The position numbers and the translations under genes were made by a program. From assembly GCA_964404765.1 (NCBI GenBank), contig CAYOLL010000011.1:773-64772 (forward strand): DNA of 64,000 bases, given 5' to 3'. Under the pieces are notes generated by a model. It made no database searches. It saw only the letters and a list, made by a program, of their open reading frames with translations, and was not told the DNA's origin. Source of the stretch: an uncultured Gemmatimonadota bacterium (lineage in GTDB: Bacteria > 4572-55). Of the stretch, positions 38,518 to 44,953 are shown one piece after another; positions within the stretch are counted from its first letter, which is position 1, and every line of letters begins with the position of its first letter.

Positions 38518-38594
38518 GGGGTCGTAGTTCAGCTGGTTAGAACGCTGGCCTGTCAAGCCAGAGGTCGCGAGTTCAAGTCTCGTCGACCCCGCCA
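38518..38594 (+). tRNA. tRNA-Asp (GTC)
   Basis: Cloverleaf: acceptor GGGGTCG/CGACCCC, anticodon loop CTGTCAA, T-arm GCGAG TTCAAGT CTCGT, CCA encoded. Confidence 0.9.
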
Positions 38595-38604
38595 TTGAAT
38601 GAAA

Positions 38605-38637
38605 ATTGCAGAGGTCCAAAGCCTCTGCAATTTTTTA
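38605..38637 (+). terminator. Rho-independent terminator (stem ATTGCAGAGG / CCTCTGCAAT + T6)
   Basis: Follows tRNA-Asp. Confidence 0.75.
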
Positions 38638-38653
38638 CTATAAGGGGACTGAT

Positions 38654-38729
38654 GCCGAGGTAGCTCAGTCGGTAGAGCAACGGACTGAAAATCCGTGTGT
38701 CGACAGTTCAATTCTGTCCCTCGGCACCA
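38654..38729 (+). tRNA. tRNA-Phe (GAA)
   Basis: Acceptor GCCGAGG/CCTCGGC, anticodon loop CTGAAAA, T-arm GACAG TTCAATT CTGTC, CCA encoded. Confidence 0.9.
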
Positions 38730-38762
38730 TCCTCTTCTAACGGTAGGATTATTAAGTGGAAT

Positions 38763-38838
38763 GCTGGCGTAGCTCAGCTGGTAGAGCAGCTGATTCGTAA
38801 TCAGCAGGTCAACGGTTCAATTCCGCTCGCCAGCTCCA
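38763..38838 (+). tRNA. tRNA-Thr (CGT)
   Basis: Acceptor GCTGGCG/CGCCAGC, anticodon loop TTCGTAA, CCA encoded; one A-C mismatch in the T stem. Confidence 0.8.
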
Positions 38839-39065
38839 CTTGTCCTGCCGTTTTTTTATCAAAAATGTAACTATTCAGTAACCGAGGCCCCGCTGGGTCT
38901 TTTCCCATTCGTGTCTATTTGTGTTCATTAAGTGGCTGAATAGTTATTCAAAAATTCAAATTGTGTCATTTCGTAATTTGAGCTGGTCGGCTTTTCAACT
39001 AAAACGTTTTCAACTTCATAATCTTACATTTGTAATTACGAAGATACTACAAACAGGAGGTCTTC

Positions 39066-41315: not shown

Positions 41316-41396
41316 CTGTTTGATAGTGTGTAATTCTAAATTCCGTTTTGAGTTGTTGTGTCAGGTTGTAATTGCTCAAAAAGTAGCGGCGGATCA

Positions 41397-41463
41397 AACC
41401 TTGCGAAGGCTTTGGTGCGCAATCCCACAAGTTTTGCGGTGAAGCCTTCGCAAGGTTGCCCAC
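41397..41463. repeat. REP-like inverted pair AACCTTGCGAAGGCTT ... AAGCCTTCGCAAGGTTG
   Basis: Same family as 22695-22785. Confidence 0.7.
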
Positions 41464-41548
41464 AGTTTTTGAGCAATTACGTCAGGTTCAAAACAATGCT
41501 TTGGGTTACGAATCCTCTTTTGTGGCGAATAAGTAACATTTTAACCCA

Positions 41549-43063
41549 ATGGAATATAAACCGGAAGTTGATATAGCAGCCTTAGTTGCGTTGGGTGAAC
41601 GCCTGCGGGCCGATTTTGCATCAATGATGGTAAGACTTCAACCGCAAGGGATAATGCCGGCGGACATTCTTGCCATTGATTTGCAGCAAACCGGCTTGAT
41701 TGCGGGTGATGCGGCTGATTTTTTGCAGGAATTACTAAGCTGGCTGCGACTGGAACGCCTGCTAAATACCGGCCTAAGCAATGACATCCAATTTCATGAT
41801 GCTGTTTCTCCGCCCGATCCCCGCCAATTTGAAGATATTGTCCCGTCGATGGCATGGCCCGACGTAGAACGAACACCTTCAGCAGCAAATCCAACGATAC
41901 TCCGATCAGAAACCGTTTCAACCGCTTCGGCTATCCATCAAATTTCGTCCGAAGCAGACGCCATGTCGGTGTCGCAAAGTTTTGTAAATCACCGGCCCGC
42001 TTCCGGAGACGATCCGGTGTTGCTCCAAACGACAACTGAGCCGGTTGAAGTTGACTTTGATCGTCGTGACGCCGGGTACTCTGTCAGCGAGGCCACAGCT
42101 CTGGAAGCTATTCAAGACGCCGCGACATTTGGACGGGTTCTAACAGTTACAGAGGCGCCGATTTCTCTACCAACTGCATCGAACGCGAAAGTATCCCGAA
42201 GTCTAAAAGATTTAGCCCGCCTGGTCGAAAATACCCCTTTATTAGTGAACGACGCGCCAATTTTGTCGGTTACCGAAAAAATGCAAATCGCTTCGCCGAC
42301 ACCGATGGATAAGAAAAACATATCGAGCTTTAAACCGGTTGTAGATGTTGGAAATGTCCCTAATCCCGCCGTAATTTCTCCAATTCCGTCTGCCGGATAC
42401 GCTATGGATAATGATGCAATTGCGGAGCAGTTTACCGCTGAAAGTCCGTATACTTCGCCGGCTGACAAAATGTTGGCTTCTCAGCAACCGACTTTTGAGA
42501 TGGCGCGTAACAACCGGGTTACCTTGCAAAATAAACTTGCTACAGAAGATTCGGAATATCCGACCGATATTGTCTACAACCCGAAGGCGGGCACACAGCC
42601 TCAAATTCGGCGGGATCATTTGCAAGGCACAAGCTCCAAAAACAAGACATCACCATCCGTCACAACGTCGGCCTTGCAGCTACACGACTGGTTGCAATTG
42701 ACCTGGCAAGTACCACTGCTGGAGTCGATGCATAATAGCCCGGCAATTGCAGCAGAATCGCAAGCTTTGTCGCCAGGCAATAGCACTGCCGCTCCAGCGC
42801 AGCAAAAGGAGCAAGCGCCGCAAATTACGGCCGCGAAAGCCCGGTTGAATCCAACCACAACCGTGAAATCAAAAACAATTAGCCCGCAATTGCAAAAGCA
42901 ACCCTCTCCATCTGAATTTTCGGCCTCTGAAACTATAAACGAAGCCCGGTTTATTTATCGTCAGGATGAAGTAAAATCCCCGTCATCACTGGATGCGGAC
43001 GAGATCATGGAAGTGTTGCTAAAGGAAATTCAACTGGATTACAGACGCTTTTACGGAGTTTAA
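41549..43063 (+). CDS. Low-complexity Pro/Ser/Thr/Ala-rich protein in the position where a tape-measure protein would be expected
   Basis: 504 aa, mostly predicted disordered. Structured-looking N-terminal ~90 aa and C-terminal ~40 aa (EIMEVLLKEIQLDYRRFYGV). No typical tape-measure features. Confidence 0.35.
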   Translation: MEYKPEVDIAALVALGERLRADFASMMVRLQPQGIMPADILAIDLQQTGLIAGDAADFLQELLSWLRLERLLNTGLSNDIQFHDAVSPPDPRQFEDIVPSMAWPDVERTPSAANPTILRSETVSTASAIHQISSEADAMSVSQSFVNHRPASGDDPVLLQTTTEPVEVDFDRRDAGYSVSEATALEAIQDAATFGRVLTVTEAPISLPTASNAKVSRSLKDLARLVENTPLLVNDAPILSVTEKMQIASPTPMDKKNISSFKPVVDVGNVPNPAVISPIPSAGYAMDNDAIAEQFTAESPYTSPADKMLASQQPTFEMARNNRVTLQNKLATEDSEYPTDIVYNPKAGTQPQIRRDHLQGTSSKNKTSPSVTTSALQLHDWLQLTWQVPLLESMHNSPAIAAESQALSPGNSTAAPAQQKEQAPQITAAKARLNPTTTVKSKTISPQLQKQPSPSEFSASETINEARFIYRQDEVKSPSSLDADEIMEVLLKEIQLDYRRFYGV

Positions 43064-43075
43064 AAGGAGCCAGCC

Positions 43076-43651
43076 ATGCCCATTGAATTAGGGACGCTCA
43101 CCCTCAATCGAATTCATAAGATTGCCACGACCGAGCAAGCGGCTTTTGTCCATCACCCGATTCCCGGTTTAGAGGGCAGCGCCACCCAAAACCTGGGTCG
43201 GCAGCCTGTTCGTCTGACCATTGAGGGCATTTTTTTCGGCGTAACGGCCAAAGACGATCTGACCAAATTGCGTGAGTTGTATATCAAACGCGAGGCTCTG
43301 GACTTTGTGGCGGATATTGTCGGCGAGGCCTACATCGGCAAAGTACTGCTGGAAAAATTTGAAGTGATGGAATCCGCCGCCGATCCGACCCAATTCAGCT
43401 ACCTTGTGACCGTTGTCGAGTACACGCCCTCAACCAAAACCACCAGCGCCGCAGCGGCCACCAACCAGAAAGCAGCCGCCTTAGCCGCCGACCGCCTGTC
43501 CGCCATGTCTCTGCCGGATGACCTCTCCCTCGGCTCCATCCCGGAAATCAGCGACCCAATTACGCCCCTCAAAGCCTCCTTAGAACCCGTCCGCGAAGCC
43601 ACCACCGCTTTAACCGACTCCCTCGGCGCGCTCAAAAATCTGTTTGGGTGA
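43076..43651 (+). CDS. Hypothetical protein (191 aa) in the sheath-tube cluster, possible tail/baseplate-associated
   Basis: RBS AAGGAG before the ATG. Globular N-terminal 120 aa, then an Ala/Ser/Thr-rich tail. Confidence 0.4.
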   Translation: MPIELGTLTLNRIHKIATTEQAAFVHHPIPGLEGSATQNLGRQPVRLTIEGIFFGVTAKDDLTKLRELYIKREALDFVADIVGEAYIGKVLLEKFEVMESAADPTQFSYLVTVVEYTPSTKTTSAAAATNQKAAALAADRLSAMSLPDDLSLGSIPEISDPITPLKASLEPVREATTALTDSLGALKNLFG

Positions 43652-43756
43652 TATAGCGCAAGCTTATGCTGATAACTATCGCCTAACCGACAATCGGTGT
43701 AAAACCTGTTGCGCCATTGGCTTTAGCATGTAAATTACCTACCGTATCCTTGGCCA

Positions 43757-44953
43757 TTGCTAAAACCCCGTCACCCGGAACAACTTATGCCGTCCAAATC
43801 TACTGCGGACAATGCGGAATTATACGAACTGCTGTTTGCTAAAATGCACCAACTGCGCGAAGCGCATATTTTGGAAACAGACACCGCGACCAAGTTTAAA
43901 TTGACACAGCAAATTCAAGAAGCCGAACGAGAACTGGCTACACTGGAAATGCAGTTTAATTTGATTGCCAATACCTGGGTAAAGGAATTACTGGCGCAAG
44001 TGCCGCAGCTTTTGGCCGAAGCCCAAACGCTCCAGCAAAAAGGGGCATACGCCGAGGCGTTGGACAAATATGCCCGGATCGAAAAAATTTTGAGCAACAA
44101 ACTTTTGGAAGTGTACCGCCATACCCGTTATATTTACCTGCGGCAAGGCAAAACCAAGTCATTGGAACTCTATTTGGACAAGACCAAAAAACTGCTGGGC
44201 AAGAGGAAAAAAGCGGATGCGGAAACCGCCCGCTACAAGCTGGATCAGGCCAGGGTATGGGCGAACCGCGGAAAAATAGACCCGGCGATTGAATTGGCCA
44301 AAGAGGCCGTGCGAGATTATGGCAATCTGGTGAAAGATTTGGAGCAGGCTCGGGCGTTGATTAATTTGGGCAATATGTACCGCCAGAAAGACCGCGATGA
44401 ACAAAAAAACTGCTATGAAAAGGCCATCCGGTTATTAACGCCATTGCCCGATTCCCCTGAAAAAGATGAAACGACGGCCATTGCCAATAACTCCCTGGGC
44501 GCATGTTACCTTGATAGAGCGTATGTCCGACCTGCGGATGGGACGCTGGCATCCGGTGATTTTAAAAAAGCCATCGATTTCCTCCAAACGGCGCGGGAAT
44601 TGTTTCAAAAATTGGCCAATCCGCGCATGGTTTATGATTGTCTGTTCAATTTAACGCAGTGTGCGGCTGAAGTTCACGAGTTTGAGCTTGCGGATACTTA
44701 TTATGCGGAATTGCGCCAGGCCGCCCGTCAAATTGAAGAAGACCTGAGCAACCCGGAGGCGCGTTCTCGTTTTGCCAGGTTACTTAATACTCTTGGCAGT
44801 GTACATCTTGAAAAGGGAAATTTCCAAATCGCGCGAGTTCACCTGGAAGAAGCTCGCCAGATTACTCTGGATTTGCCAGAAAACTGTGCCGAAGAAAAAG
44901 AAGACTTGTTGGATGCAATTGGGGAAAATATAGATAAAATTCAGAGCAAATAA
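43757..44953 (+). CDS. TPR-repeat protein
   Basis: Multiple TPR-like helices (YAEALDKYARIEKIL, ARALINLGNMYRQK, SLGACYLDRAY). Confidence 0.6.
   Translation: MLKPRHPEQLMPSKSTADNAELYELLFAKMHQLREAHILETDTATKFKLTQQIQEAERELATLEMQFNLIANTWVKELLAQVPQLLAEAQTLQQKGAYAEALDKYARIEKILSNKLLEVYRHTRYIYLRQGKTKSLELYLDKTKKLLGKRKKADAETARYKLDQARVWANRGKIDPAIELAKEAVRDYGNLVKDLEQARALINLGNMYRQKDRDEQKNCYEKAIRLLTPLPDSPEKDETTAIANNSLGACYLDRAYVRPADGTLASGDFKKAIDFLQTARELFQKLANPRMVYDCLFNLTQCAAEVHEFELADTYYAELRQAARQIEEDLSNPEARSRFARLLNTLGSVHLEKGNFQIARVHLEEARQITLDLPENCAEEKEDLLDAIGENIDKIQSK

Follow-up and report, generated by a model that had tools for sequence, protein, structure and literature searches.

The 64-kb stretch of genomic DNA from an uncultured Gemmatimonadota bacterium analysed here (the window; all coordinates without a locus prefix are window positions) led us to an uncharacterised, widespread family of chromosomal gene clusters that resemble contractile tails. 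Positions 39066-43651 are, we are fairly confident, the 5' part of one such conserved cluster, which has a Mu/P2-like organisation, is of the tailocin or contractile injection system (CIS) type and carries no head genes. The most useful result is a recoding signal found across the family, a run of nine adenines (A9) at the junction between the two parts of a putative tail assembly chaperone gene. The window locus itself, being truncated, is probably not a new machine. It contains the following features, in which ORF stands for open reading frame, REP for repetitive extragenic palindromic and MITE for miniature inverted-repeat transposable element:

39066-40163, + strand: sheath gene, 365 aa (Pfam and PHROG 279)
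40316-40825, + strand: probable tube gene, 169 aa (fold match of the AlphaFold model)
40840-41187, + strand: putative chaperone, 'G' ORF in the zero frame, 115 aa (fold and position after the tube gene)
41162-41170, + strand: shift-prone A9 run, C AAA AAA AAA C (zero-frame codons CAA AAA AAA ACT)
41169-41315, + strand: 'T' extension in the -1 frame, 48 codons, NFADELSASYLVRAAFRLAKEFGWTPLDIQQMTMGQIALYMAMLDRDL followed by a stop codon
41368-41480, + strand: nested perfect hairpin of 113 nt, REP/MITE-like, between the chaperone gene and the protein X gene
41549-43063, + strand: protein X, 504 aa, role unassigned, its ends conserved and its middle disordered and rich in Pro/Ser/Thr
43076-43651, + strand: putative tube-initiator/baseplate-hub-like protein of the Mu gp43 N-domain type, 191 aa, the final cluster gene here

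All five cluster ORFs are co-directional, and the recoding signal lies at the 3' end of the third, which closes with ...GAG CAA AAA AAA ACT TTG CTG ACG AAT TGA, so that the zero-frame stop stands 15 nt past the A9 run. The -1 frame opens only at 41160 and extends for 48 codons to a TGA at 41313-41315; the +1 frame closes within a few codons. The original prediction, made from this locus by itself, had pointed to the A9 run and the open -1 frame at the end of the 115-aa ORF, and both are present as described. Homologues of 164-178 aa that are encoded in a single ORF end in a domain with which the T extension aligns, FGWTP motif included, and the extension is modelled as a helical domain.

Comparison of about 90 homologous loci, in which the G and T parts were placed by tblastn, separated them into two clean classes. 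In 41 loci, 34 of them unique, T lies in the -1 frame, and all 34 have an A run at the same junction (A9 in 29, A10 in four and A8 in one), with the zero-frame stop 2-18 nt 3' of the run. In 45 loci, G and T form one ORF that contains no homopolymer longer than six, and fused proteins of 164-178 aa from the databases align end to end with the conceptual 158-aa GT of the window. The A run at the junction is far beyond chance and is found also in genes of up to 68% G+C. Its first A occupies codon position 2 in 20 of the unique loci, position 3 in 12 and position 1 in two, and the flanking residues differ between loci, (E/Q)KK(S/T/R) in some versus (G/P)KK(N/T/L) in others. Since the position of the first A varies and A9 dominates, it is the length of the run that is conserved, and not its codon phase or the residues around it. 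The -1 extension, whose conservation in homologues had been left for checking, is conserved in 34 unique relatives, and the junction run together with the 45 fused orthologues argues that the fused GT product is real and that the A run is under selection.

Two members of the family, L092 (9080-9160, A10) and L093 (5310-5390, A11), have the long product in frame, with a stop two codons off in the alternative frame. Separately, L008 (A10, split) and P0122 (fused, ...QKKKSIDVLD) differ in effect by a single A. Such one-A differences, which switch the chaperone between split and fused forms, represent either a true polymorphism resembling phase variation or homopolymer assembly errors. An exhaustive HMMER search of 1.84 billion representatives retrieved only 196 clusters, comprising full-length, G-only and T-only (39-60 aa) proteins. 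The chaperone and its second ORF of about 45 codons are currently miscalled as two unrelated hypothetical genes. More generally, current annotation names the sheath by generic domain names and calls both the tube and the chaperone 'hypothetical protein', and our literature searches retrieved no description of the cluster family or of a frameshifted chaperone in a CIS.

Standard decoding of the window gene would yield a 115-aa G protein, and a -1 frame change within the A9 run would yield GT, 158 aa long and extended by a three-helix domain. The change could come about through ribosomal slippage on A_AAA_AAA or through RNA-polymerase slippage that adds one A. A_AAA_AAA is the classical ribosomal -1 heptamer, and it occurs in both main phase classes of the family. 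RNAalifold, applied to 25 loci, found no conserved pairing 3' of the A run and no stimulatory structure. Nine A or T residues are the length of efficient bacterial RNA-polymerase slippage, as in Thermus thermophilus dnaX (PMC5009743). Because run length is kept independently of phase, no conserved stimulatory RNA is seen and in-frame A10 and A11 variants exist, the comparisons favour, but do not prove, RNA-polymerase slippage over ribosomal frameshifting. If they act like lambda gpG/gpGT, G and GT would cover the length-determining protein and bring in the tube subunits. A bolder proposal joins two claims: that a family-wide transcriptional-slippage device sets the ratio of short to long chaperone (A9 placing the short form in frame, A10 or A11 the long one), and that the five-gene module of the window is still in use, with its baseplate encoded elsewhere or in a baseplate-independent role. 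We regard this combination as unlikely. The 34 independent A-run junctions (A9 in 29), the 45 fused orthologues and the few in-frame A10/A11 variants constitute a clean natural recoding dataset, and they make this chaperone family convenient for asking whether tail-chaperone recoding can use RNA-polymerase slippage.

Identification of the chaperone draws on structure and gene order, as neither G nor GT has a match in Pfam, NCBIfam or PHROG. The AlphaFold model of GT (pLDDT 80) has an alpha/beta N-domain and a three-helix C-domain, and the shift site maps exactly to a disordered linker, residues 108-113. The top three Foldseek matches of this model in the Protein Data Bank (PDB) are YqbN (3klu, probability 0.94), a homologue (3fgx, 0.90) and the HK97 tail assembly chaperone (2ob9, 0.72). 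Among the top 50 matches to predicted viral structures (BFVD), most are unnamed; eight of the nine named ones are labelled 'tail assembly chaperone' and the ninth 'baseplate hub subunit'. The gene lies directly 3' of the tube gene; the next gene encodes the disordered protein X, and in relatives a gene with PHROG tape-measure similarity follows two genes later. Taken together, the fold matches and the position after the tube gene support a tail assembly chaperone of the G/GT type. The original prediction had made the same call, and the two-ORF layout agrees with it.

The sheath protein matches Phage_sheath_1 (PF04984; 51.6 bits, cut-off 31.4, 1.2e-13) and Phage_sheath_1C (PF17482; 59.4 bits, cut-off 26.9, 3.8e-16) in Pfam as well as PHROG 279 'tail sheath' (1.9e-41), which confirms the predicted function of the 365-aa ORF. 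Its homologues in Cyanobacteria, Chloroflexi, Bacteroidota, Longimicrobium and Leptospirales are 60-72% identical, and a family sheath profile weakly matches the sheaths of phage 812, pyocin (PA0622, 9e-7), Afp3 and All3325 in the PDB. The tube protein, whose homologues are 70-78% identical, reaches Phage_tube_2 only at E 0.0066 (16.5 bits, below the curated cut-off of 27) and has no PDB match by sequence or profile. An AlphaFold model built from 30 homologues (pLDDT 67, pTM 0.62) retrieved almost exclusively tail tubes and Hcp proteins as top Foldseek matches in the PDB, at probabilities of 0.9-1.0, among them mycobacteriophage Douge, XkdM (2guj), HFTV1, phage 812, PVC and diffocin. On the evidence of this modelled fold, the assignment of the 169-aa protein as tail tube holds, in line with the original prediction, the sequence match remaining below threshold.

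The 191-aa protein, left unassigned in the original prediction, scores 22.7 bits (cut-off 21) against DNA_circ_N, which represents the N-domain of Mu gp43, and matches PHROG 184 'baseplate hub' at 1.2e-5; its matches to Dit_like and GpU are weaker. It shares 27-54% identity in alignment with proteins at the same position in relatives. These similarities mark it as a probable baseplate-associated protein of the tube-initiator/hub type, so that the description 'without baseplate' is true of the window only for hub, spike, wedge and fibre. A match of this protein to PDB entry 4ri2 was taken as spurious; single-sequence PDB searches with sheath, tube and initiator gave nothing useful, and the profile search helped for the sheath only. 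Protein X has a combined Pro, Ser and Thr content of 25%, compared with a background of 14% in two other window-encoded proteins, in agreement with its predicted composition, and has no family match in Pfam, PHROG or further family searches. With the 358-540-aa proteins at the same position in relatives it shares an N-terminal LxxLGxxLRxDF-like region and a C-terminal ...EYRRFYG region. A role as classical tape measure is doubtful in view of the missing family match, the disordered middle and the match of another protein of the relatives, about 1200 aa long, to PHROG tape-measure families. The window copy retains 98 of 99 family-invariant residues in the sheath, 35 of 35 and 64 of 65 in the tube (two alignments), 13 of 13 in the tube-initiator and 22 of 22 in G/GT. 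This total of 232 out of 234 equals the rate in members of complete clusters and, with the intact ORFs, bears out the earlier argument against complete decay.

The family is spread over Cyanobacteria (Microcystis, Dolichospermum, Nostoc), Chloroflexi, Bacteroidota (Lewinellaceae), Gemmatimonadota, Longimicrobium and Leptospirales; a genome-collection scan with the sheath query returned three loci only, all distant. Architecture was counted in 28 relatives with at least 4.5 kb of downstream sequence. In 26 of them, further cluster genes follow: most have the big helical protein, and homologues of GPD, base_V or gp25 appear wherever the locus extends to them. The usual order is sheath, tube, G/GT, protein X (358-540 aa), initiator (about 190 aa), helical protein (about 1200 aa, 1100-1250), GPD hub, V spike, gp25 and Baseplate_J. 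The corresponding Pfam domains are Phage_GPD, Phage_base_V, GPW_gp25/Sheath_initiator, Baseplate_J and, in a fibre, Peptidase_S74. L003, L059 and L091 have Baseplate_J after gp25, and in the Microcystis-type L091, the sole locus read further, an 864-aa protein and a Peptidase_S74 fibre lie past it. Examples of this downstream part are L003 7932-14248, L052 12379-18531 and L091 8477-17924. The protein of about 1200 aa matches the PHROG tape-measure family phrog_4200 at 5.7e-8 and is probably the real length ruler. In L088 (Lewinellaceae, 12340-16392), the initiator domain is fused to it in one 1350-aa ORF (tblastn, 44.6% identity over residues 1-190), and in L093 the corresponding position is taken by one 1354-aa ORF (6576-10640), which suggests the same fusion; tube-initiator and tape-measure-like protein probably function together. 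The stretches examined showed no lysis cassette. On its gene order and genomic context, we class the family as a tailocin/CIS-like chromosomal cluster organised as in Mu/P2, and not as a prophage. It also differs from extracellular CIS (eCIS) of the Afp/PVC type, as neither an ATPase nor a DUF4255 cap nor a LysM protein was seen.

Several relatives carry additional genes. A soil relative, L036, encodes a 770-aa RHS-repeat protein (15569-17881) between its tape-measure-like and GPD hub genes, which is plausible toxin cargo. Beside the clusters lie a Ser/Thr kinase, a sigma-54 activator and a response regulator in L092 (1252-6412), a BTAD-WD40 protein in L001 (5622-9692) and a hybrid histidine kinase in L059 (1687-5133). 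The presence of such large regulators next to complete or partial clusters hints that expression of the family is regulated.

In the window, the cluster breaks off behind the tube-initiator gene, with unrelated DNA beyond. Pfam scans of all large window ORFs revealed no baseplate wedge, spike or ATPase gene, and tblastn of the relatives' baseplate proteins against the 64 kb gave no match below E 0.01 and no remnants up to E = 5. The original prediction of a cluster lacking baseplate, spike and ATPase genes therefore stands for hub, spike, wedge and fibre, and fails for the 191-aa protein with its DNA_circ_N and PHROG 184 matches. The relatives examined likewise showed no ATPase gene in the roughly 10 kb around the cluster, which makes the missing AAA ATPase uninformative. 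In the sole other truncated relative, L001 (complete 6.4-Mb genome GCA_964656645.1), the cluster stops in the big gene, of which a 523-aa fragment is left, with a transposase gene about 0.4 kb downstream. Since 26 of 28 relatives are contiguous, the window represents a truncation rather than a designed minimal system, and the locus alone cannot build an injection device.

As to how the truncation arose, we lean towards the remnant of a recent rearrangement: relatives are nearly always contiguous, the big gene of L001 is visibly cut, the downstream DNA of the window is a mosaic (a giant gene of 41% G+C, a toxin-antitoxin pair and a truncated mfd) and a hairpin separates the chaperone and protein X genes. 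A split but functional system, in which tape-measure-like, hub, spike, wedge and fibre genes at a second locus of the same genome would complete a tailocin or CIS, is a lesser though genuine possibility. It would account for five genes intact with their family-invariant residues, for a mutation-prone A9 run at exactly the family-typical length, for a break exactly at a gene boundary and for the fact that L001, too, keeps the same five genes intact after loss of the rest. Contiguity in 26 of 28 relatives argues against it, as do the cut gene of L001 just upstream of a transposase gene, the absence of any baseplate gene within 64 kb and the 113-nt hairpin, which broke the translational coupling of the chaperone gene to the next one. 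An autonomous sheath-tube module with a baseplate-independent role, such as a cytoplasmic filament or a source of subunits for another contractile system, is very improbable. The window and L001, from independent genomes, do both retain an intact sheath-tube-G/GT-X-initiator set, but two of 28 loci are compatible with chance truncation, no conserved replacement genes lie downstream, and the TPR gene that follows in the window has no counterpart in any relative. Such a module would also run contrary to the assembly of T4, type VI secretion systems and eCIS, as generally known: in these, the extended sheath polymerises only on a tube grown from the baseplate. The minimal contractile module put forward in the original prediction thus finds no support in relatives that carry their baseplate genes contiguously.

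Equally improbable is an artefact, whether a homopolymer error that split a single ORF, a chimeric metagenome contig that mimics truncation, or both. Homopolymer length errors are common, fused A10 (L092) and A11 (L093) variants exist, and the pair L008 and P0122 differs by effectively one A. Against this, A9 with T in the -1 frame recurs in 29 of the 34 unique loci, which were assembled independently, and one type of REP-like palindrome lies both inside the cluster (41397-41457) and in the chromosomal DNA upstream of it (22698-22778, 35193), which ties the cluster to its upstream neighbourhood. Several points weigh against our preferred reading of the segment as a recently truncated tail-like cluster with a recoded chaperone. 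The confidence of the tube model is only moderate (pLDDT 67), the PDB fold matches of GT are weak though specific (E-values 0.1-0.6, TM-scores 0.4-0.6), and GT production we infer from conservation. The choice between a truncated and a split system was judged from 64 kb of genome only, the intact ORFs and the intact, mutation-prone A9 run are unlike a long-dead remnant, and a chimeric metagenome assembly at the junction past the tube-initiator gene is a remote possibility.

The cluster is preceded by three tRNA genes, correctly recognised in the original prediction and the only Rfam matches in the window:

38518-38594: tRNA-Asp (ARAGORN and Rfam)
38654-38729: tRNA-Phe (ARAGORN and Rfam)
38763-38838: tRNA-Thr (ARAGORN and Rfam)

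This neighbourhood had suggested a decayed prophage tail region at a tRNA integration hotspot, an explanation that is now largely refuted and retains very little probability. In its favour are the start of the cluster at the sheath ORF, 228 nt past tRNA-Thr, and the downstream mosaic with its toxin-antitoxin pair and truncated mfd. A search for att-like repeats of the tRNA-Thr 3' end, proposed earlier, found none in the window (up to three mismatches in 25 nt; direct repeats of at least 14 nt), and Pfam scans of the large window ORFs found no integrase or head domains. Upstream in the window lie the tRNAs and a TPR lipoprotein gene, and no capsid or packaging genes adjoin the tail genes. Complete loci of the family likewise lack head genes, an integrase was not seen in relatives, and in four complete loci (L012, L036, L052 and L059) the cluster begins at the sheath gene, right after ordinary cellular genes. 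The closest sheath in 50,697 phage genomes is at most 30% identical, so that the family is absent from them above this level, and the chaperone was found in two of 2.9 million viral contigs (IMG/VR). A tRNA gene lies nearby in one of 28 related loci, the other 27 not being tRNA-linked. As there is neither an att-like tRNA-Thr repeat nor an integrase, the tRNA neighbourhood looks incidental.

A 9-nt inverted repeat upstream of the sheath gene, noted in the original prediction, does exist, though at 38970-38978 and 39034-39042 rather than within 38967-39037 as first given. Repeats of at least 9 nt arise in 12% of Markov-resampled copies of the 227-nt region (P = 0.12), and more than 30 relatives lack the repeat ahead of their sheath gene. 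With occurrence not beyond chance and no conservation, its candidacy as an operator was rejected. A promoter and terminator scan gave counts not above those in shuffled sequence.

The hairpin at 41368-41480 consists of perfectly complementary outer arms of 15 nt (GTAATTGCTCAAAAA) and inner arms of 16 nt (AACCTTGCGAAGGCTT), with a fold z-score of -5.3, and is flanked by a direct GTCAGGTT repeat that resembles a target-site duplication. Its inner palindrome (TAACCTTGCGAAGGTTA-type) recurs intergenically at 22698-22778 and around 35193-35208, which indicates that the host genome has a family of such REP/MITE-like repeats. The stop codon of T overlaps the next start codon in L001 and L003; in the window, the hairpin separates the chaperone gene from the protein X gene.

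The cluster is followed by the genes for a TPR protein and a 2111-aa protein with Peptidase_C13 and dockerin domains in Pfam, both of which had been predicted, and by a RelB/MazF pair and a 5'-truncated mfd. The gene of the 2111-aa secreted protein (44964-51299) contains four tandem divergent repeats of about 1.0-1.2 kb, near 45045, 46269, 47298 and 48504, ends in the Peptidase_C13 and dockerin domains and has a G+C content of about 41%, compared with about 50% in its flanks; it was probably acquired separately. In the segment 51311-54198, the RelB-like/MazF pair (51311-51969) stands directly ahead of a 739-aa mfd that starts immediately in front of the RID domain. This gene thus lacks the UvrB-homology module, about 400 N-terminal codons, and no N-terminal fragment was seen in the window, which suggests that this site is a rearrangement or insertion point. 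Elsewhere, dense signalling and defence-like genes (48-10749, 16638-17849 and 27641-30283) encode a STAND NTPase-WD40 protein, a TIR-WD40 protein, a 1300-aa adenylate cyclase-AAA_16-TPR protein, a KAP-family NTPase and DUF6079. The host has an outer membrane, and some of its proteins carry type IX secretion sorting domains. A C15 homopolymer at 63937-63951, 50 nt from the window end, may be an assembly-end artefact.

Among known systems, the chaperone gene resembles that of lambda. In a 2004 study by Xu and co-workers, a programmed -1 frameshift in the tail assembly chaperone is said to be conserved among long-tailed phages (lambda gpG/gpGT; P2 E/E+E'). As in lambda, whose type of chaperone frameshifting is reviewed in PMC5009743, the gene directly follows the tube gene, its short ORF ends a few codons past the slippery run, and a -1 extension of about 50 codons, conserved in homologues, adds a small, probably helical domain. 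The modelled GT fold also resembles the HK97 and YqbN chaperones. Unlike its lambda counterpart, the window chaperone belongs to no sequence family, its signal is a 9-nt homopolymer conserved in length rather than codon phase, and about half of its orthologues are plain fused ORFs. Furthermore, the gene after the chaperone encodes a disordered Pro/Ser/Thr-rich protein, the tape-measure-like gene of relatives lying two genes later. With T. thermophilus dnaX (PMC5009743), the family shares a run exactly at the efficient RNA-polymerase slippage length, nearby stops in the non-productive frames, the lack of a conserved downstream RNA structure and, in L092 (A10) and L093 (A11), a long product in frame with a short one that requires a shift. 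In contrast to dnaX, slippage is here predicted from sequence, and A_AAA_AAA also fits the ribosomal -1 heptamer.

Turning to the tail proteins, the XkdK-XkdM-XkdN set of Bacillus PBSX/skin provides the best solved chaperone match (YqbN 3klu, probability 0.94) and, at ranks 2-3, one of the best tube matches (XkdM 2guj, probability 1.0), although sequence identity is only 11-16% and there is no XkdN Pfam match. Afp/PVC eCIS are likewise chromosomal tail-like clusters without capsid genes, and the sheaths of Afp3 and Anabaena All3325 are weak profile matches. They differ in their Afp15-type AAA+ ATPase, Afp16/DUF4255 cap and LysM protein Afp7. The window contains none of these, and neither do the flanks of relatives, which were covered up to 10 kb and to a limited extent past the fibre gene. 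We know of no eCIS that uses a G/GT frameshift, and the literature searches found none either. Further systems close to the family are the contractile tail modules of Mu/P2 and R-type tailocins of the pyocin R2 type. No sequenced phage sheath is more than 30% identical to that of the window, the family has an extra disordered protein, a tape-measure-like gene of about 1200 aa after the initiator and no lysis cassette in the stretches seen, and the window copy holds only the first five genes of a set that is complete in relatives. The family nevertheless follows the same gene order, from sheath, tube and frameshifted chaperone through the DNA_circ_N (Mu gp43-like) protein, GPD hub, V spike and gp25/W to J, with an S74 fibre in L091. 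Like the R-type tailocins, it has no head genes, and the pyocin sheath PA0622 is among the best PDB profile matches of its sheath (9e-7).

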